Shown piece after piece: positions 1 to 45,423 of a stretch of 46,841 nt of DNA. Position 1 is the stretch's first letter. Each line of letters opens with the position of its first letter. A program made the position numbers and the translations under genes. The notes under the pieces were generated by a model. That model was not told the origin of the DNA and did no database searches. It was given only the letters and a program-made list of their open reading frames with translations. The DNA comes from a virus (taxonomy: Duplodnaviria; Heunggongvirae; Uroviricota; Caudoviricetes), in IMG/VR virus record IMGVR_UViG_2648501797_000005, positions 1 to 46,841 of that record. One strand, given 5' to 3'.

Positions 1-90
1 TCACTCTGCCAGATGGCGCAATGCCATCTGGTATCACTTAAAGGTATTAAAAACAACTTTTTGTCTTTTTACCTTCCCGTTTCGCTCAAG
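1..90. other. host chromosomal flank (bio/ybhB side of lambda attB); perfect inverted repeat CCAGATGGC-gcaat-GCCATCTGG at 9..31
   Basis: Sequence to the left of the att core (CGCTCAAG read on the + strand, i.e. the B' arm, continuing CGAAACGGGAAGG on the other strand) matches my recollection of the E. coli side of attB-lambda; no phage-like coding. Confidence 0.55.
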
Positions 91-105
91 TTAGTATAAA
101 AAAGC
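91..105. other. att core (common O region) of the P-O-B' junction (attR in lambda convention)
   Basis: TTAGTATAAAAAAGC = reverse complement of lambda core GCTTTTTTATACTAA; flanked by B'-type sequence on the left and P-arm-type sequence on the right. Confidence 0.8.
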
Positions 106-250
106 TGAACGCGAAACAGCAAAAGCCAATAATATCAATGTGTTAAAATACATTTAGTCTAAAAAATAGACTGCATGATACTACAAAACACAACATATCC
201 AGTCACTATGAATCAACCACTTAGATGGTATTAGTGACCTGTAACAGAGC
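106..250. other. attP P arm (Int arm-type / IHF / Xis binding region), diverged from lambda near the core
   Basis: 186..248 is the reverse complement of lambda P-arm sequence CTGTTACAGGTCACTAATACCATCTAAGTAGTTGATTCATAGTGACTGGATATGTTGTGTTTT (from memory); 106..185 is AT-rich and only partly lambda-like. Confidence 0.6.
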
Positions 251-292
251 ATTAGCGCAAGGTGATTTTTTGTCTTCTTGCGCTAATTTTTT
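251..292 (+). terminator. sib/tI-like hairpin plus T-run just beyond the P arm
   Basis: ATTAGCGCAAG...CTTGCGCTAAT stem followed by TTTTTT on the + strand; position equals lambda sib relative to att. Confidence 0.45.
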
Positions 293-405
293 GTCAATGC
301 ACTGGGTTAGTTGAATTTACAACCATGCTCAGTATCTCGATAAGCGCAGGTAGATGATGCAGTGGTGGGCTGATTACATCGATGGTCGTGCAGGAGTGTA
401 AGCCA

Positions 406-1437
406 TTACGCGAATTCTTCCACGATCGCCATGCCAGTAGCACCATCACCACCGGTAAATGCCGTACCGGTAAACCCAAGGTCATACGCGCCACCACCAC
501 CGGATCCGGGAGCTGCGCCAGCAATACCGGCCTGAGAACCCGCCCGACCACCGCCGCCAAAATACGACGCCCCGCCGTTGCCCGTCAGAAGGCTTGAGCC
601 TGTCTGTCCATCTGAGCCGGTACCACCGTTGATCCTGATATCTCCGGTCGCCGCCGTACCTCCGGCGCCGCCGGCGGTATTGGACACGCCTGACTTCACG
701 CCGCCTTTCCCGCCAGGAGCTGAGAACAGGCTGGCAAACGAGGTAGCACCACCATCCGCACCACTTACTGCGCCAACTCCGCCCTTACCACCCTTTCCGA
801 CAGTAATCGCGTAAGAACTGGCAGCAGACAGGTCAACCCATACGATAATGGTCGCGCCCGCGCCGCCGCCAGCACCGGAGAAGGTTTCTGTATTGTTGGA
901 GGCCTGGCAGCCGCCACCGCCGCCACCGGCACCGGTCAACGTTACTTTTGCATAACGGGCCAGAGGAGATCGCGTATAGGTTCCGTTTGCATAGAAAGCT
1001 TTTGGAGCGCCAAGTGAACGCCCGACAAAACCAGAGGAATCAGATATTCCGAGGTTATAACGGGCTTCATTTATCGCATCCTCACCGGCATCTTTAATTT
1101 CTGACAGGTTATTGCTGATCTGCAGGAACGACAACAATGATCCGGCGGTCATTAAATTCGCGACAATGTCATTCGTTGACCATACGCGTGCCGTAGTTCC
1201 TTCCTGACCACGAATTACTGTCATCACGTCACCGGATACAGACGTGACGTGCATAATTTCAGAAATTGTTTTCGTGGCCGCGTCGGTTATCGTTAATTTG
1301 AAATAACTCTGCCCAGATACAGGGGACGGGAATAAAGACCCCGCTCCAGTACCCACGGTAATAACGGTAGCGGACGCGCTAATACCAGCAGCGAGAACAC
1401 TCTTTGCGTTATTATTGGCTAATAGCTTCAGCGCCAT
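406..1437 (-). CDS. tail fibre protein, glycine-rich C-terminal region, N-terminal domain shared with the 2918..5380 fibre
   Basis: 343-aa ORF; N-terminus MALKLLANNNAKS...SYFKLTITDAAT parallels MALTLLATNNAES...SYFKLTLTDAAT of the larger fibre; long Gly-rich stretches. Confidence 0.6.
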   Translation of the reverse strand: MALKLLANNNAKSVLAAGISASATVITVGTGAGSLFPSPVSGQSYFKLTITDAATKTISEIMHVTSVSGDVMTVIRGQEGTTARVWSTNDIVANLMTAGSLLSFLQISNNLSEIKDAGEDAINEARYNLGISDSSGFVGRSLGAPKAFYANGTYTRSPLARYAKVTLTGAGGGGGGCQASNNTETFSGAGGGAGATIIVWVDLSAASSYAITVGKGGKGGVGAVSGADGGATSFASLFSAPGGKGGVKSGVSNTAGGAGGTAATGDIRINGGTGSDGQTGSSLLTGNGGASYFGGGGRAGSQAGIAGAAPGSGGGGAYDLGFTGTAFTGGDGATGMAIVEEFA

Positions 1438-1448
1438 ATATACCCCAG

Positions 1449-1766
1449 TTAAATAATAGAATTATCGGAACGAACATCGCAGATAGTAAACGTCACGACG
1501 CCGATGACAGTAACATCGTCCAGGGCTTCGCCCTCGATCGCTTCACCATCTTCAGTAATCAGTGACTTTCCTCTCAGCGTGGCAAGCTCCGTCCCGCCGC
1601 CGTGCTGTATAAGTAGTTGGCTACCCTGCTTTGGCTTCAGGGAGATATCCAGTACAACGTAACCACCAGATCGCTCGAAAACTAGCGTGTTTGGGCCGAC
1701 ATTGCAGATCGAGTTAACAGACAACCTTTGCTCAACGTAGTCCGTCGCTGGTGAAGGGAATCCCAT
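1449..1766 (-). CDS. hypothetical protein (105 aa), second gene downstream of the LexA box
   Basis: ATG at 1766 overlaps the TAA of the upstream gene; GGAGGG Shine-Dalgarno; no family recognised. Confidence 0.45.
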   Translation of the reverse strand: MGFPSPATDYVEQRLSVNSICNVGPNTLVFERSGGYVVLDISLKPKQGSQLLIQHGGGTELATLRGKSLITEDGEAIEGEALDDVTVIGVVTFTICDVRSDNSII

Positions 1767-2005
1767 TAGATCACCCTCCCCATGTTGGCCATCATCCACA
1801 AACGGTTTTCGCTATGGTCGGTGGTTTTGTCGACAAAGTACGTCTGCTCTCTAGATATCCACGCATTAGCCTCTGCGTCGGTAAAGTGCAGCCCAAGCCG
1901 GCGCAGCGCTGACACAAAATCCTTTGTGTGCAGGTACTGGTAGCCTTTGGAGTTGCGCAATACCGACTCGCGGAAAGCCGCGGCGATGTCTGACTGTCGA
2001 AGCAT
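1766..2005 (-). CDS. hypothetical protein (79 aa), first gene downstream of the LexA box
   Basis: ORF with GGAGGG Shine-Dalgarno 7 nt upstream of ATG 2005; no family recognised. Confidence 0.5.
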   Translation of the reverse strand: MLRQSDIAAAFRESVLRNSKGYQYLHTKDFVSALRRLGLHFTDAEANAWISREQTYFVDKTTDHSENRLWMMANMGRVI

Positions 2006-2023
2006 GATCTGCCCTCCGATAAA

Positions 2024-2043
2024 TACTGTTTTTATATACAGTA
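2024..2043. promoter_or_regulatory. LexA (SOS) box overlapping a putative promoter for the 2005->406 gene set
   Basis: TACTGTTTTTATATACAGTA fits the CTGT-N8-ACAG consensus with perfect palindromic arms; sits in the 107-bp gap upstream of the minus-strand 79-aa gene. Confidence 0.6.
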
Positions 2044-2112
2044 GTTTTAAGTGAGCGGCAGATCAATGCTGGTTGTGGCTATCAATCCCTGCGTCAGTAG
2101 CAAACTATTGTT

Positions 2113-2916
2113 TTAGCTATAGCGCCCATTAACCAGGTTGATGTCATCTGAAAGAATCTCTAAGGCATTTTTACTTGTTAGCGTCAGGTCATCTAGTCGA
2201 CAGCGATACACTCCACCATTCACCGAGAGTGATGTCGTTGTTATTTCAGCATCCCCCAGCCGCGCCAGAGTAATTGCTGCCGGATAAGCAACAATCGCTG
2301 AGAATGAGCTCTCATACTTCAGTACGCTATCAAGGTAGAGGCGCGATTTCTGCATTGTCCCATCAGAAGAAACTACGCGCTCAACAGCAACCTGGTGGAC
2401 ATTCCCATCAAAAAGCCCTGACAGGAATGAGTACGCATTAATCACCTCTCCGTGGTTAATCACCTGCAATGCGCTCGCGGCAGTTGTTGAAGAGAATGTC
2501 GGGCGCAGCCAAAACAGCGTGTTCGCTGCGTTACTGGGTGTGCCATTTGTCAGAGCCACCAGGAATGAGTTGGAAGTAGCAGCAGCAGCACCTGTTACTT
2601 TCAGCCAGAACGTATACAGATAATTTGTCATCCCTGATGTGGCAATCATTGATGCCGGGAGATTAATTCCCTGCGCATGAACTGAGTTCAGTTCGTACCC
2701 ATTACCAGCTGCTGTCAGATCAGAGTTAGCTGTCGCGTTGTCGTCGACATAGCACATGTTTTTGATTTGCGCACCAGCAACGAGGTCTGCCCCAGCGCCA
2801 GACCATGTGTTATGGAATGAAATTAACCCCTTCGTCCCACTATTAATCGAGCCATCACGATAAAGAATATCGCCAGTTGCGACAATTACACCATTTCGTT
2901 TCTCAAACGGACCCAT
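2113..2916 (-). CDS. hypothetical tail-fibre-associated protein (267 aa)
   Basis: Starts immediately after the stop of the 820-aa fibre; Ser/Thr/Asn/Gly-rich. Confidence 0.45.
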   Translation of the reverse strand: MGPFEKRNGVIVATGDILYRDGSINSGTKGLISFHNTWSGAGADLVAGAQIKNMCYVDDNATANSDLTAAGNGYELNSVHAQGINLPASMIATSGMTNYLYTFWLKVTGAAAATSNSFLVALTNGTPSNAANTLFWLRPTFSSTTAASALQVINHGEVINAYSFLSGLFDGNVHQVAVERVVSSDGTMQKSRLYLDSVLKYESSFSAIVAYPAAITLARLGDAEITTTSLSVNGGVYRCRLDDLTLTSKNALEILSDDINLVNGRYS

Positions 2917-2917
2917 T

Positions 2918-5380
2918 TTACACCCACCCTAATAATTGAAATTTCTGGTAAATAAATTCAGCGTTTACGTCCGCGCCAGCCTGCAATGCATATTCAGGGG
3001 CGTTAGATGTTTCTTTCGATTGGCTAGGATGCAGTCCGTCATACTTCAATGAAGTTGGAGGGATATCATTTCCAAAGTCAGAAACGTCCTGAGAATATGC
3101 TGGATTATAGTTGTTTACGAAGTTTTCCCTCATATCAACACTATCAATTTCGCACCATAACTCAGGGTATTTCTTTTTAATCATGCTGTTTGATAACATG
3201 ACGTTTGCATAACCTGCTGATCCACGGGGCTCAACACTGCTGTTAAAATCAGGCAGGATAATAACCTTCTGCCCAAGAGATTTAAGGTATTCAACTACAC
3301 CAATAGTGTCGCTGAGAACCTGCATTGACTGGCTAATATTATTCCTTCCCATCCAGAAAATATTTATACATTCAGGGTGAAGAGGGAAAGATGTTCCTGC
3401 CGGAATTCCTCCGGTAATAGCACCAGTGGTCACCGGATCGCAAATGAATGGCACGGCAACAGGCACGTTAACCGCATCACCAGATGCATCACGGGTGAAT
3501 GTGGCATTGGTTCCATCCCATGAAAAATTGCCTGGAATGCCAGCCAGAGAACCGTGGAACGGCGTCGATGCTGCGGCGTTGGCAAAATAACTCAGTGGCC
3601 CCGGGTTTGCCGGAGAAAGAGTTACCGAACCGCTGGCAGGAATGCTGCCGCCAACTGGAACGTAATACGCTCTGCGCCCACCCTGAGCAGCAGCTGTGCC
3701 AACGCTTGTGCGTGAGCTTTTGCCAAAGTTATAGGCCGTGTAGCCGGTTAGCTCCTGCAGGCGTGTCAGCATACGGGGGTTATCAACCATTGAATGGCCC
3801 CACCCGCAAATGATCGGCCTGGCCATTACAGAGTGCTCAGTCAGATCATTGATATAGCAATAATACTGCCCACCCGGTGCGCGATTAGTCTCCCTGTCCG
3901 ATTGCCAGATAACCTTATCATCATCAACGCGTGGCAAGGTTTCATTACTGGATGTATTGGTTACACGAACCTGCTGACCTGTATCCCGATCAAACAGGAA
4001 AACCTGCTCATAGCCTCCTTTCTCTTCGCTAAATGCAATGTAATCAGGCTGACCTGAATTTGTCAGGTCCGATGATTTCAGCGACTCGATAACAACCAGG
4101 TTTTCAGATGTGGATGCCGAAATGTATCCACTATCTGCATACTCATCAGGTGAGAGAAACGTTACTGACTCTGGAAGAGGTGATAATGCGTCAGTAACAC
4201 CCTTTATCTCTGTAAAATCGCTTCCTTCAATTACAGCGTCATCAACGACAATTTTGCTAAAATAAATGGTGGTGCCTTTAATGCCAACAATAATTCTATT
4301 GTTTTCAGAAAAAGTTGCTGAGTCATACCCTGAATCCGAAAATTCAGATATATCGACAAAAGTCGAAGCCTGTAAAAAAGGAACGATTCCAAGAAGGCTT
4401 TGCCCAGAAATCAAAATATCATTTCCTGAAAGGATTTCAGCAGAAAATTCATCTGCGCTGATTTCCCCTGTTTTGATTTTTTGGAAGAACCACTCAACAC
4501 CTTTCCTGGATAGTAATATTTTTTTATTTTCATCTAGTATAGCCTCTTCCACCCCAGAATCTTTATATTCATCAGAAGAAAAGAATTCTGATGCCTGTGT
4601 TATATTTAACAAAGGGGAGTAAGGAGCAATTGATTCATCTACATACTTCTTAGATGGAATTTTCAGACCAGTGGGTTCAAGAGTGCCACTATTGTTAATT
4701 ACTTCAATAGCCAGTGCGCTGTCATCCGGGCTACGGTAAAATGCAGTAGCACCAGACAGAATATTGCCAGCATCGGCGTCGGCCTGTGCCGCCTCCAGCG
4801 TCGAAAATTCGCGGATGGTATTAGTTATAGACCCCTGTCCAGGGTACTCAGCAACCTCTTGTGCTACGCCTGAGTTATTTTTGTAATAACGGAAAGCAAG
4901 GACATTTCCTGTCCCCTGGGGAACGCGGAAGTATTGCCCGCTCGTCGTCGCTGCAAGGCCAGCCGCCGTATCAGCAAAGGTTGATTTATTGTCACCAAAC
5001 TCCGACGCGCTAAGTGCATATCCCTGTGCCTCTTCCGCTGAATCAGATGCCTGTTTTGCAAAATCAGCAATCACATTCAGCGTGTCAGCGGTCATCATGT
5101 TGGCAACCATGTCGTTGGCCGCCCACGCACGCGCCAGCGTTCCTTCTTGCGCACGTTCAATCGTGAAGATGTCCCCAGCCTTGGCTGTCACGTTCACGAT
5201 CTCAACCTGTGAGCCGGTGGCGGCATCGGTGAGAGTGAGCTTAAAATAGCTCTCGCCTGCCACAGCATCAGGGAACTCGGCACCAGTTCCTGCGCTAACG
5301 ATCAGCGACGTGTCGGTTGCGCTGATAGCAGAAGCCAGCGTGCTTTCTGCGTTGTTTGTAGCCAAAAGGGTTAGTGCCAT
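2918..5380 (-). CDS. tail fibre / tailspike protein (820 aa), possible esterase-like C-terminal domain
   Basis: GGAGGA Shine-Dalgarno before ATG 5380 (the 827-aa track ORF starts 7 codons earlier); shared N-terminal anchor with the other fibre; C-terminal DGLHPS resembles the SGNH block V motif (inference only). Confidence 0.65.
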   Translation of the reverse strand: MALTLLATNNAESTLASAISATDTSLIVSAGTGAEFPDAVAGESYFKLTLTDAATGSQVEIVNVTAKAGDIFTIERAQEGTLARAWAANDMVANMMTADTLNVIADFAKQASDSAEEAQGYALSASEFGDNKSTFADTAAGLAATTSGQYFRVPQGTGNVLAFRYYKNNSGVAQEVAEYPGQGSITNTIREFSTLEAAQADADAGNILSGATAFYRSPDDSALAIEVINNSGTLEPTGLKIPSKKYVDESIAPYSPLLNITQASEFFSSDEYKDSGVEEAILDENKKILLSRKGVEWFFQKIKTGEISADEFSAEILSGNDILISGQSLLGIVPFLQASTFVDISEFSDSGYDSATFSENNRIIVGIKGTTIYFSKIVVDDAVIEGSDFTEIKGVTDALSPLPESVTFLSPDEYADSGYISASTSENLVVIESLKSSDLTNSGQPDYIAFSEEKGGYEQVFLFDRDTGQQVRVTNTSSNETLPRVDDDKVIWQSDRETNRAPGGQYYCYINDLTEHSVMARPIICGWGHSMVDNPRMLTRLQELTGYTAYNFGKSSRTSVGTAAAQGGRRAYYVPVGGSIPASGSVTLSPANPGPLSYFANAAASTPFHGSLAGIPGNFSWDGTNATFTRDASGDAVNVPVAVPFICDPVTTGAITGGIPAGTSFPLHPECINIFWMGRNNISQSMQVLSDTIGVVEYLKSLGQKVIILPDFNSSVEPRGSAGYANVMLSNSMIKKKYPELWCEIDSVDMRENFVNNYNPAYSQDVSDFGNDIPPTSLKYDGLHPSQSKETSNAPEYALQAGADVNAEFIYQKFQLLGWV

Positions 5381-5403
5381 GTATCCTCCGGGATTAGGCA
5401 ATA

Positions 5404-5427: not shown

Positions 5428-5441
5428 AAATGGTGAATATT

Positions 5442-5708
5442 ATGAATAATGCTTCTATTGCTATTTTAAAAATACTTTTAGGAACGCTATCTACTTTATT
5501 AATACTCCTTTCTTGCGCCTTGCTTACTATTTTATTTGGATTTCTTTTTCAGCAAGGAATGCCGCCAATAGATATGATAAAAATGTCATCCATTTTGTTT
5601 TTATCAATAGTTGTGCTGCATATAATTTGTCAGTGCGTTAAATCTCATTTGTATATAACAATAGATAATCGAGATAAAAACCTAGTCAAATATCTCAACC
5701 GTGACTGA
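5442..5708 (+). CDS. small two-TM membrane protein encoded on the opposite strand in an AT-rich island
   Basis: ORF in strongly AT-rich DNA; GGTGA before ATG 5442 (ORF opens at 5430); two hydrophobic segments; 27-nt convergent overlap with the 5682..6386 gene. Confidence 0.4.
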   Translation: MNNASIAILKILLGTLSTLLILLSCALLTILFGFLFQQGMPPIDMIKMSSILFLSIVVLHIICQCVKSHLYITIDNRDKNLVKYLNRD

Positions 5709-7806: not shown

Positions 7807-8135
7807 ACGGCCACCTGTGTAATTATTTTTGAACCTGCGTTTGTGATTGCCGAGATGTTATAAACAGGCGGGTCGTCGCTGATCAGTGCAATCTGCAGCG
7901 AGGGAAAATACTGGCTGAACTGTTTTTGAATACGGTTTACGTAATACGTAGGCAGGATTTGCTGGATCACCGACCCGGCGGCCGGTATTCCGTTGTTCGC
8001 ATAAAAGGGCGACTCCTGCGGTGCCAGTTTCAGATTCTGGATCAGGGTGGTCAAATACACCGAGTCATTAAACCCATATTCGTCGGTTTCCACCAGGACC
8101 CACTTCCCCTCAGAGTTTCGGCCATAGGTTCTCAC
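7803..8135 (-). CDS. small baseplate protein (110 aa), possibly gpW/gp25-like wedge
   Basis: Size and position; ATGA-type overlaps at both ends. Confidence 0.35.
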   Translation of the reverse strand: MRTYGRNSEGKWVLVETDEYGFNDSVYLTTLIQNLKLAPQESPFYANNGIPAAGSVIQQILPTYYVNRIQKQFSQYFPSLQIALISDDPPVYNISAITNAGSKIITQVAV

Positions 8136-33879: not shown

Positions 33880-34059
33880 GTTTCACTCCTGCTTTGGCTA
33901 GTCTGTAAACACCAACAAGGCGCTCTGCGAACGCCCTGTTATTTGCTGCGGCTACCACTAATCCCTCAGGTGAATCAGGGTGTCGAATCTCTTCTTTTTC
34001 CTGGTATTTCTTACGACGTTTTGTCATAATTACTCCTGTGGATTGATCCAGTAATTCCC

Positions 34060-34791: not shown

Positions 34792-35508
<717 letters not shown>

Positions 35509-44156: not shown

Positions 44157-44375
44157 ATGTACTTAACACTTCAGGAGTGGAACGCACGCCAGCGACGTCC
44201 AAGAAGCCTTGAAACAGTTCGTCGATGGGTACGCGAGTGCAGGATATTCCCTCCTCCGGTTAAGGATGGAAGAGAGTATCTGTTCCACGAATCAGCGGTA
44301 AAGGTTGACTTAAATCGACCAGTAACAGGTAGCCTTTTGAAGAGGATCAGAAATGGGAAGAAGGCGAATTCATGA
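44157..44375 (+). CDS. xis: excisionase
   Basis: 72 aa, matches lambda Xis as recalled. Confidence 0.9.
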   Translation: MYLTLQEWNARQRRPRSLETVRRWVRECRIFPPPVKDGREYLFHESAVKVDLNRPVTGSLLKRIRNGKKANS

Positions 44376-45423
44376 GCGCCGGGATTTACCCCCTAACCTT
44401 TATATAAGAAACAATGGATATTACTGCTACAGGGACCCAAGGACGGGTAAAGAGTTTGGATTAGGCCGAGACAGGCGAATCGCAATCACTGAAGCTATAC
44501 AGGCCAACATTGAGTTATTTTCAGGACACAAACACAAGCCTCTGACAGCGAGAATCAACAGTGATAATTCCGTTACGTTACATTCATGGCTTGATCGCTA
44601 CGAAAAAATCCTGGCCAGCAGAGGAATCAAGCAGAAGACACTCATAAATTACATGAGCAAAATTAAAGCAATAAGGAGGGGTCTGCCTGATGCTCCACTT
44701 GAAGACATCACCACAAAAGAAATTGCGGCAATGCTCAATGGATACATAGACGAGGGCAAGGCGGCGTCAGCCAAGTTAATCAGATCAACACTGAGCGATG
44801 CATTCCGAGAGGCAATAGCTGAAGGCCATATAACAACAAACCCGGTCGCTGCCACTCGCGCAGCAAAATCAGAGGTAAGGAGATCAAGACTTACGGCTGA
44901 CGAATACCTGAAAATTTATCAAGCAGCAGAATCATCACCATGTTGGTTAAGACTTGCAATGGAACTGGCTGTTGTTACCGGGCAACGAGTTGGTGATTTA
45001 TGCGAAATGAAGTGGTCTGATATCGTAGATGGATATCTTTATGTCGAGCAAAGCAAAACAGGAGTAAAAATTGCCATCCCAACAGCATTGCATGTTGATG
45101 TTCTCGGAATATCAATGAAGGAAACACTTGATAAATGCAAAAAGATTCTTGGCGGAGAAACCATAATTGCATCTACTCGTCGTGAACCGCTTTCATCCGG
45201 CACAGTATCAAGGTATTTTATGCGCGCACGAAAAGCATCAGGTCTTTCCTTCGAAGGGGATCCGCCAACCTTTCACGAGTTGCGCAGTTTGTCTGCAAGA
45301 CTCTATGAGAAGCAGATAAGCGATAAATTTGCTCAACATCTTCTCGGGCATAAGTCGGACACCATGGCATCACAGTATCGTGATGACAGAGGCAGGGAGT
45401 GGGACAAAATTGAAATCAAATAA
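44353..45423 (+). CDS. int: integrase (tyrosine recombinase)
   Basis: 356 aa, near-identical to lambda Int as recalled; overlaps xis 3' end as in lambda. Confidence 0.95.
   Translation: MGRRRIHERRDLPPNLYIRNNGYYCYRDPRTGKEFGLGRDRRIAITEAIQANIELFSGHKHKPLTARINSDNSVTLHSWLDRYEKILASRGIKQKTLINYMSKIKAIRRGLPDAPLEDITTKEIAAMLNGYIDEGKAASAKLIRSTLSDAFREAIAEGHITTNPVAATRAAKSEVRRSRLTADEYLKIYQAAESSPCWLRLAMELAVVTGQRVGDLCEMKWSDIVDGYLYVEQSKTGVKIAIPTALHVDVLGISMKETLDKCKKILGGETIIASTRREPLSSGTVSRYFMRARKASGLSFEGDPPTFHELRSLSARLYEKQISDKFAQHLLGHKSDTMASQYRDDRGREWDKIEIK

Follow-up and report, generated by a model that had tools for sequence, protein, structure and literature searches.

The window analysed here, a 46,841-nucleotide stretch of a Caudoviricetes genome (IMG/VR record IMGVR_UViG_2648501797_000005), carries near its beginning a run of three minus-strand open reading frames of 79 aa (2005..1766), 105 aa (1766..1449) and 343 aa (1437..406). 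They are headed by a 107-nt non-coding gap (2006-2112), within which a 20-mer with CTGT/ACAG arms occupies positions 2024-2043. The 20-mer and the three genes had been described in an earlier reading made from the letters only (the sequence-only reading), and were found exactly as described. The features of the locus are:

406..1437, minus strand: second, glycine-rich tail fibre of 343 aa, which neighbours the SOS unit downstream without being one of its conserved members
1449..1766, minus strand: 105-aa UmuD'/HumD-like gene, whose product has an S24 fold that lacks the catalytic loop; the start codon overlaps the 79-aa gene's stop codon (TAATG)
1766..2005, minus strand: 79-aa winged-helix gene (phrog_3893), the first gene of the SOS unit
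2003..2064, minus strand: inverted repeat around the operator, with the 5' arm GATCTGCC at 2064..2057 and the 3' arm GGCAGATC at 2013..2006
2024..2043, minus strand: LexA operator (SOS box), TACTGTTTTTATATACAGTA in the window, TACTGTATATAAAAACAGTA on the coding strand
2038..2066, minus strand: putative sigma-70 promoter, with the -35 TTGATC at 2066..2061, a 17-nt spacer and the -10 TACTGT at 2043..2038
2077..2086, minus strand: upstream element ATTGATAGCC, common to the umuDC promoter

The operator agrees with the 20-bp gamma-proteobacterial SOS box consensus TACTGTATATATATACAGTA at 18 of its 20 positions and is identical, over the full 20-mer, to the umuDC operator of E. coli K-12. LexA-box scoring had been suggested as a check, and it bears the assignment out. 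With a heterology-index-type score built on 26 E. coli LexA sites from the literature, the identical umuDC site being excluded, the operator scores 1.12 on its coding strand, against 9.8 for the next best site of the window and 7.87 for the best site over 30 shuffled windows; only one of the 26 genuine sites beats it. Could the palindrome be a chance LexA-like sequence, or the operator of a regulator other than LexA, with no SOS role? The bare core CTGT-N8-ACAG is by itself statistically ordinary in 47 kb: the window has two copies where 0.61 are expected, an excess that is not significant, as 13 of 100 shuffles also reach two. The full 20-mer, in contrast, is far beyond chance. It is identical to a bona fide operator and lies within a homologous promoter, nothing in shuffled sequence scores nearly as well, and its position is fixed across divergent phages, all of which makes a chance sequence or a non-LexA operator hardly credible.

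Of 67 distinct related upstream sequences, 62 carry a box of the form CTG[T/G]-N8-[A/C]CAG at a near-constant distance from the start codon (21 nt from box to ATG in the window), and the flanks further upstream are unrelated among these loci while the box and the -35 stay conserved. LexA boxes also lie about 20 nt 5' of the same two-gene module in mEp390, Flotzy, HK140, phiES15, Midgardsormr38, AH07, Kp4884-3 and the metagenomic locus L093, and precede the solitary UmuD'-like genes of P1, pAEv1818 and Kp4873-4.

The operator overlaps the putative promoter, the -10 hexamer TACTGT being the first six bases of the LexA box, and transcription would start inside the box. An alignment of 61 sequences (A2) shows little or no variation in the TTGA of the -35 and in TACTGT, and a TTGATC-N17-TACTGT-type architecture recurs in umuDC, mEp390, HK140, phiES15, AH07 and L093. 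A generic promoter and terminator scan returned nothing at the operator because the -10 matches at only 3/6 positions. About 65 nt of the promoter region are homologous to the umuDC promoter (local alignment score 66, shuffle maximum 28); this alignment takes in the upstream element at 2077..2086, which many related loci have as well. The umuDC-identical operator, the umuDC-homologous promoter and the conservation across dozens of phages with unrelated flanks strongly support the predicted LexA (SOS) control of the two small genes, as the sequence-only reading had proposed, and LexA is expected to bind the operator.

The inverted repeat encloses the operator, with its 5' arm overlapping the -35 and its 3' arm placed between the Shine-Dalgarno sequence GGAGGG (2017..2012) and the ATG (2005..2003). 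The hairpin has an MFE of -30.8 kcal/mol. The duplex between its two arms has an energy of -25.9 kcal/mol, where the background averages -10.2; no natural 28-mer equals this value when sampling proceeds in 7-nt steps from up to 3 kb upstream. The arm duplex falls at or below the 5th percentile in 65% of 62 distinct loci; the hairpin is absent from mEp390, Flotzy and HK140, and column-wise covariation for the window's own hairpin is only marginal. RNAalifold on 61 upstream regions recovered the LexA palindrome alone, since the register of the outer stem shifts between loci, and an Rfam search of positions 1-3000 gave no family. What might the hairpin do? The late operon, with its Q antiterminator, lies on the same (minus) strand and gives a late transcript of 26 kb that spans all of that strand's genes. 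It is possible that in read-through late RNA the hairpin would hide the ribosome-binding site; by pairing the -35 region with the Shine-Dalgarno-ATG segment, it may keep the two SOS genes untranslated on the late transcript. A weaker form of this inverted repeat is also found in chromosomal umuDC, where no read-through is expected.

The first gene of the unit encodes a protein with the winged-helix topology H1-S1-H2-H3-S2-S3. It had been judged by eye not to resemble DinI, and this judgement holds: there is no Pfam DinI match and the fold is that of a winged helix, on which grounds a DinI or ImpC-like identity was rejected. For 30 members of the family Pfam gives no hit at E<=1, a PDB sequence search with the protein returned only noise (E>0.5), a BFVD fold search returned a single nameless family member, and hhalign finds no relation between the family and the LexA N-terminal domain (probability 0.3%). 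The protein is an orphan winged-helix protein with putative nucleic-acid binding.

The second product had been taken for an unknown protein. It is instead a UmuD'/HumD homologue, pre-truncated in the manner of P1 HumD. It begins with MGFPSPA, equivalent to UmuD Gly25 (the post-cleavage glycine), and its N-terminal arm MGFPSPATDYVEQR aligns with UmuD residues 25-38. Among 16 family members the arm motif GFPSPAxDYxE has G2, P4, S5, P6, A7 and D9 invariant and M1, F3, Y10 and E12 nearly invariant, so that the arm is far better conserved than the globular core. Identity to P1 HumD is 33% over residues 1-100 (E 8e-6), the short UmuD' type being about 32-35% identical to UmuD' and HumD, and the PHROG matches are phrog_811 (6e-11) and phrog_3469 (1.8e-46). 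The protein has the beta fold of the S24 family (LexA/CI/UmuD C-terminal domain); the best structural matches of its AF2 model, which was made from a shallow alignment, include UmuD' and also the lambda CI and LexA C-terminal domains. A self-cleaving S24 peptidase was considered for this protein and rejected: the 11-residue segment around UmuD Ser60 is missing, no lysine aligns with UmuD Lys97 and the chain starts past the cleavage site, and it is therefore not a peptidase. Neither the window nor any of the related loci inspected has a umuC adjacent to the gene, so its function would depend on the host's copy. By analogy with HumD, the protein would use host UmuC; alternatively, it could act as a decoy instead of a UmuC partner. 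Clustering at 90% identity puts hundreds to thousands of Klebsiella and E. coli sequences into single clusters of this protein.

The two small genes lie side by side in 77 of 80 IMG/VR loci plus RothC, and the pairing persists with winged-helix homologues of only 35-38% identity. The pair is found in many enterobacterial temperate phages, between tail fibre and attP, and as a cassette it occurs in a wide range of temperate phages, lambdoid ones included, from several host genera; a scan of species-representative genomes gave 3 loci only. Relatives of the UmuD'-like gene without the 79-aa gene are also found in P1-like and Aeromonas phages. Two natural winged-helix/S24 fusions, P0141 and P0166, were discarded as probable artefacts of a frameshift or truncation. 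Neither umuDC nor HumD has a counterpart to such strict coupling with a winged-helix gene, a hint that the pair may do something else, or something more.

The minus-strand segment 1449-2086 is probably a self-contained, LexA-repressed two-gene moron in a prophage of lambda immunity, placed where the late operon ends; its UmuD'-like product would aid host UmuC. In an undamaged lysogen, host LexA on the umuDC-identical operator, which overlaps the -10 and the likely start site, would keep the unit silent. Upon DNA damage RecA* would cleave LexA and transcription would start within the box, giving a LexA-controlled transcript with a short leader in which the GGAGGG ribosome-binding site is free. 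Two translationally coupled products would be made, the 79-aa winged-helix protein and the 105-aa UmuD' look-alike, the latter starting already at the residue that RecA-mediated cleavage would expose in UmuD, its protease loop lost. By analogy with P1 HumD, the UmuD'-like protein would dimerise and arm host UmuC as a Pol V-type translesion polymerase with no need for slow UmuD processing, while the winged-helix protein may be an obligate partner or a regulator. The replication of damaged phage and host DNA would be helped, at the cost of mutagenesis.

Does the unit extend into the fibre gene? The sequence-only reading had raised an SOS-controlled alternative receptor-binding fibre, and the LexA promoter might exist to put the Gly-rich receptor-binding fibre and two helpers under SOS control, in which case lysogens induced by damage would be expected to release virions of altered fibre content or host range. 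The 343-aa protein (Pfam Gly_rich_2, PF21722, 8.5e-14; PHROG tail-fibre families) is encoded on the same strand, starting 11 nt downstream of the UmuD'-like stop, and no terminator-like site was found on the minus strand of 406-2112, from the operator to the end of the fibre gene (the only minus-strand match in 1-3200, at 2884..2868, is inside the 267-aa gene); some SOS read-through into the fibre gene is therefore possible. Its N-terminal 134 aa, a baseplate-anchor N-terminus, have 49% identity (E 3e-33) with the main 827-aa fibre, so that the two could compete for the baseplate site, and Klebsiella phage RothC has the same gene order. Set against this is the distribution of the pair, which is followed by the fibre in only 6 of 81 related loci and elsewhere comes last before the prophage end or the integrase, in some loci with an intrinsic terminator straight after the UmuD'-like stop. 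The fibre is therefore a neighbour and not part of the SOS unit. Moreover, neither small protein is a fibre chaperone, one being homologous to UmuD' and the other a winged-helix protein, and the simplest account of normal fibre expression is the Q-antiterminated late transcript, from which the fibre would mainly be made. An SOS-controlled fibre as a designed feature is not supported, and a promoter that exists for its sake is quite unlikely.

Gifsy-type antirepressor genes are located at the tail end of the prophage, and here too a small LexA-regulated gene lies at that end. It could be asked whether the 79-aa protein is a LexA-controlled antirepressor, of the Gifsy, SPC32H Ant or 186 Tum type, that inactivates the prophage repressor on damage; the Gifsy antirepressors are under LexA control in the work cited by PMC9879122, a paper on SOS genes of Gifsy-1 that is itself unrelated. 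The CI of the window (34795-35508), however, has HTH_3 and Peptidase_S24 (6.8e-29) domains, the Ala-Gly site VQAGMF, the GNSM serine and the FKKL lysine; being lambda-type and self-cleaving, it needs no antirepressor, which makes such a role unlikely. A repressor-specific factor should also not be so portable as a cassette, and the 79-aa protein is always coupled to a UmuD' homologue; the antirepressor reading, very unlikely on these grounds, was rejected. A role for the pair without UmuC deserves more weight, as a two-piece, non-cleavable LexA-like regulator or as an S24 decoy acting on RecA* filaments or on host UmuD/UmuD', in either case tuning SOS or the timing of induction. A winged-helix DNA-binding domain with an S24 dimerisation domain is LexA's own domain make-up, the model of the 105-aa protein matches the lambda CI and LexA C-terminal domains besides UmuD', and the deleted catalytic loop, the strict coupling of the two genes and the conservation of the arm above the core would all suit it. 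Yet no sequence relation links the 79-aa family with the N-terminal domain of LexA, its member here is mildly basic at most and has a third helix that is not rich in DNA-contacting residues (as read by eye), the only fusions found are apparent frameshift artefacts, and HumD, the closest characterised relative, acts as UmuD'. We regard this reading as unlikely. A broader proposal, that the winged helix and the protease-dead UmuD' form an unrecognised two-protein SOS effector (a split non-cleavable LexA-like regulator, or an adaptor retargeting UmuD'/UmuC or RecA*), with an anti-Shine-Dalgarno hairpin that limits translation to the LexA-controlled transcript, is speculative and, taken whole, unlikely.

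RecA*-dependent cleavage of UmuD normally delays Pol V. If the UmuD' moron reading is right, a pre-activated UmuD' supplied by the prophage would bypass this step, and lysogens could become sooner mutagenic and tolerant of damaged templates after damage, for example by a fluoroquinolone. As the module is common, it could affect the supply of mutations and the survival of prophages among Enterobacterales of clinical importance. The conserved 79-aa partner, uncharacterised and with a clear regulatory context, makes an easy experimental target.

Among known LexA-controlled prophage genes, Gifsy GfoA/GfhA, SPC32H Ant and 186 Tum are likewise small genes under a LexA box outside the immunity region. 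The window differs in its self-cleaving repressor and in the UmuD' homologue that is the partner of its 79-aa gene; no homology to these antirepressor modules was detected, and the pair is not a member of them. The two-gene module is shared instead with HK140 (HK140_027/028), mEp390 (gp26), Flotzy, phiES15 (gp51/52), Midgardsormr38 (gp33/34), Pantoea AH07 (26/27) and Klebsiella RothC, as are the LexA box and the position between tail fibre and attP/integrase. In these phages the UmuD-like/hypothetical pairs are known from record annotation alone: the winged-helix ORF is unannotated in mEp390 and is named 'DNA polymerase V' in Midgardsormr38. Several of them have a divergent dinI next door, whereas the window has no dinI there, and among these records only RothC has the Gly-rich fibre downstream of the pair.

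The pair, almost certainly switched on by DNA damage, is cargo of a sort already known in phages, P1 HumD being an example, rather than a tail fibre under damage control. P1 HumD, like N15 gp26, is a UmuD' homologue of a temperate phage that is regulated by LexA and made in pre-truncated form. In the P1 record a 'LexA binding site in the regulatory region of lxr and humD' is annotated, and HumD is described there as a protein that 'functionally complements E. coli UmuD''. HumD and the window protein have in common the MGFPSPA start at the UmuD Gly25 equivalent, the S24 fold, a strong LexA box 20-40 nt upstream and a temperate phage without umuC. They differ in length (129 aa for HumD, 105 aa for the window protein, which is without the catalytic-serine loop) and in setting, as the window gene comes second, coupled to a 79-aa winged-helix gene that P1 does not have, and lies beside attP, where the late tail operon has its 3' end.

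With E. coli umuDC (Pol V) the likeness extends to the control region, where the two share the 20-bp operator to the letter and some 65 nt of homologous promoter, ATTGATAGCC and the -35 region ATTGATCTGC among them, and the UmuD' N-terminal arm GFPSPAADYVEQR is nearly identical to that of the window protein. In contrast to umuDC, the window is without umuC and the catalytic serine loop, and has an extra winged-helix gene between the promoter and the umuD'-like gene. It also lacks the N-terminal 24 residues and the cleavage site of UmuD, and RecA*-dependent activation is therefore not needed.

A 20-bp LexA-type box lies at 2024-2043, as the sequence-only reading had it, in a 107-nt non-coding gap ahead of a run of three ORFs on the minus strand. 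Together with this regulatory DNA, the first two of these genes appear, from comparison of related loci, to form a portable, self-promoted SOS cassette (a moron). The elements concerned are the following:

2916..2113, minus: 267-aa gene
2006-2112: 107-nt non-coding gap holding the box, between the 267-aa gene and the three-ORF run
2077-2086, minus: 10-nt element ATTGATAGCC, separated from the -35 downstream of it by about 10 nt (starts about 20 nt apart)
2066..2061, minus: putative -35, TTGATC
2064..2057, minus: 5' hairpin arm GATCTGCC, in the -35 region
2024-2043: LexA-type box TACTGTTTTTATATACAGTA, read on the coding (minus) strand as TACTGTATATAAAAACAGTA
2043..2038, minus: putative -10, TACTGT, the first six bases of the box, 17-nt spacer from the -35
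2013..2006, minus: 3' hairpin arm GGCAGATC, complementary to GATCTGCC, between Shine-Dalgarno and ATG
2005..1766, minus: 79-aa gene, phrog_3893, predicted winged helix (AF2)
1766..1449, minus: 105-aa UmuD'-like gene with phrog_3469, PDB and P1 HumD matches
1437..406, minus: 343-aa glycine-rich fibre, Pfam Gly_rich_2

The bare core CTGT-N8-ACAG is unremarkable alone, occurring twice in the window against 0.61 expected. The full box was scored with an approximate heterology-index-type matrix from 26 E. coli LexA sites of the literature, the identical umuDC site being excluded. On this scale, where genuine sites span 1.1 to 9.9, the coding-strand box scores 1.12, the next best site in the window 9.8 and the best over 30 shuffled windows 7.87. 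A chance origin of the box is excluded for practical purposes. Two weak LexA-like sites at 34034-34053 and 7918-7937 (both about 9.8, at the edge of the genuine range) are probably chance matches; one of them lies directly beyond the end of the cII-like gene.

The operator of E. coli K-12 umuDC, when its upstream region is read, is the same 20-mer. About 65 nt of upstream DNA align between the two (ATTGATAGCC ... ATTGATCTGC ... ACTACTGTATATAAAAACAGTAT), with a local alignment score of 66, where 500 shuffles never exceed 28, which marks the regulatory region of the window as an umuDC-type promoter-operator. Since the -10 coincides with the first six bases of the box, bound LexA would occlude both the -10 and the start site, which we infer to fall within the box. 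The generic promoter scan made no call at TTGATC-N17-TACTGT because the -10 matches at only three of six positions. The element ATTGATAGCC recurs in the E. coli umuDC promoter and in many related loci, and includes a second -35-like hexamer, TTGATA.

How widely is this arrangement kept? Of 212 relatives of the 79-aa protein in IMG/VR, 80 loci were fetched. A box of the form CTG[T/G]-N8-[A/C]CAG stands at a constant distance from the ATG in 62 of 67 distinct upstream sequences, which also retain TTGA in the -35 and a GGAGGG Shine-Dalgarno; beyond the promoter the DNA is unrelated, with differing tail genes and spacers. The other five (L019, L020, L032, L049 and L081, related loci of one sub-lineage) have box and promoter swapped for unrelated GC-rich DNA (~3930-4000) that runs up to ...ATTTATCGGAGGG, with Shine-Dalgarno and both genes intact; these copies presumably lack SOS control. 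The same layout is found in more distantly related phages, namely mEp390, Flotzy, HK140, phiES15, Erwinia Midgardsormr38, Pantoea AH07 and Klebsiella Kp4884-3. It also occurs beside metagenomic homologues of just 35-38% identity, among which the upstream sequence was read in L093 alone, where the box precedes a GTG start codon by 21 nt.

The 105-aa protein matches phrog_3469 ('UmuD-like', 1.8e-46), and its residues 2-44 match UmuD and UmuD' in the PDB (GFPSPATDYVEQRLSVNSI vs GFPSPAADYVEQRIDLNQL). It starts exactly at the equivalent of UmuD Gly25, which RecA-mediated cleavage exposes, and among characterised proteins P1 HumD is its nearest relative, with 33% identity across residues 1-100. In an AF2 model built on a shallow alignment, residues 1-22 form a disordered arm and the beta core has pLDDT 77-89. 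In a 16-sequence alignment the short type is without 11 residues around UmuD Ser60 and without the Lys97 equivalent, so that the protein, a UmuD' homologue, cannot be a peptidase and has no need of that activity. The SOS control proposed for two unknown small proteins is strongly supported by the umuDC-identical operator and its conservation, and one of the two is no longer an unknown.

Its partner belongs to an orphan family. The 79-aa protein matches phrog_3893, which has no assigned function, and among its 378 relatives the top 120 carry a hypothetical or uncharacterised label or no name. Near-full-length matches, mostly of about 79 aa, go down to about 35% identity, and the 84 family representatives to about 28%. 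The AF2 model (pLDDT 91.7, H-S-H-H-S-S topology) predicts a winged helix. A Pfam search of 30 family members returned no match at E<=1, DinI included, which agrees with the earlier impression by eye that the small proteins are not DinI, and no relation to the LexA N-terminal domain was detectable. The two genes overlap as TAATG and are adjacent in 77 of the 80 IMG/VR loci and in the Klebsiella phage RothC. In mEp390 (NC_019721) the winged-helix ORF (2263-2502, plus) is unannotated, the record giving a 43-aa ORF of the other strand in its place; in Midgardsormr38 (459-701) its label is 'DNA polymerase V'. Both seem to be errors of annotation.

Does the operator also govern the fibre? The window comprises a complete prophage whose attachment site is that of lambda, with lambda immunity, integrase and Q joined to a contractile-tail late operon:

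~94-108, minus: attachment core GCTTTTTTATACTAA, which we take, on reading 1-300, to be the lambda attB/attP core
~253-297, plus: presumed lambda-like P arm and sib/tI hairpin with T-run, recognised in the same way
44353-45423: lambda-type integrase
45558 (start): 427-aa host-like ORF
all minus: Q-like antiterminator, lysis genes, terminase, sheath and tape measure

The 343-aa protein is a genuine second fibre, sharing 49% identity with the 827-aa fibre over its first 134 residues. The scan from the operator to the end of its gene found no terminator-like site, so SOS transcription may to some extent continue into the fibre gene in this lineage. Only 6 of 81 related loci have the fibre after the pair; in the rest the pair runs up to the prophage end, attP or integrase, at times with an intrinsic terminator. 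The late genes from the Q-like antiterminator to the tape measure are all on the minus strand, so the late transcript runs through the cassette into the fibre gene and is the simplest source of its expression. The comparison of the 81 loci therefore makes designed SOS control of an alternative fibre unlikely. A promoter-like TTTACT-18-GATAAT (1461-1490, minus) sits within the UmuD'-like gene at its 3' end, with the fibre ATG 24 nt further on; as the sole generic-scan match in 1-3200, where shuffles give 4.7, it is weak evidence for an internal promoter. The 827-aa fibre more likely starts at an ATG (MALTLLA...), which aligns with Met1 of the glycine-rich fibre, than at the TTG of the mechanical ORF seven codons upstream (5380-5401 region). 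A strongly hydrophobic 92-aa ORF (5430-5708, plus), flanked by the 827-aa fibre gene and the baseplate genes and antisense to the late operon, could be a membrane-protein moron.

The two arms around the operator are an open lead with substantial caveats. The predicted fold of the 75-nt region has -30.8 kcal/mol and places the LexA palindrome at its tip, and the arm-arm duplex reaches -25.9 kcal/mol (background mean -10.2), equalled by no natural 28-mer taken every 7 nt up to 3 kb upstream. In 65% of 62 distinct loci the duplex is at or below the 5th percentile of its own background, and four loci (L035, L051, L066, L093) retain pairing to the Shine-Dalgarno region with quite different 5' arms. 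Both arms would occur only in RNA begun upstream, here the late read-through transcript, so the hairpin could block translation of the SOS genes late in infection, whereas the SOS transcript, beginning within the box, would leave the Shine-Dalgarno free. RNAalifold on the upstream regions recovered the palindrome alone, column-wise covariation is marginal (24 vs 18 double-change cells; 22 of 500 shuffles as high), and the hairpin is absent in mEp390, Flotzy and HK140. Chromosomal umuDC has a weaker version.

LexA would repress the pair promoter until DNA damage lifts repression, and the winged-helix protein and the UmuD' look-alike would be produced together. The latter may then arm host UmuC, bypassing slow RecA*-dependent UmuD processing, and armed UmuC would help to replicate damaged DNA during induction; we infer this arming step by analogy with HumD, which the P1 record credits with functional complementation of E. 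coli UmuD'. Because the loop is deleted, identity is low and the winged-helix partner is obligatory, a decoy or regulator role is conceivable, and a pair acting as a split LexA-like regulator or as a RecA*/UmuD decoy seems to us rather improbable. An antirepressor module is unlikely, since the CI of the window, which we take to be nearly identical to lambda CI (HTH_3 and Peptidase_S24 domains), is self-cleaving and the cassette moves among widely differing temperate phages (compared outside their immunity regions).

Four features appear to be new with respect to the literature searched: the conserved winged-helix partner, the missing catalytic loop, a promoter-operator directly homologous to that of umuDC and the possible anti-Shine-Dalgarno hairpin. 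LexA-regulated, pre-truncated UmuD' genes are already known in temperate phages (P1 HumD, N15 gp26), a LexA site is entered in the P1 record for the lxr and humD regulatory region, and 'UmuD-like' genes are annotated at this position in several lambdoid phages.
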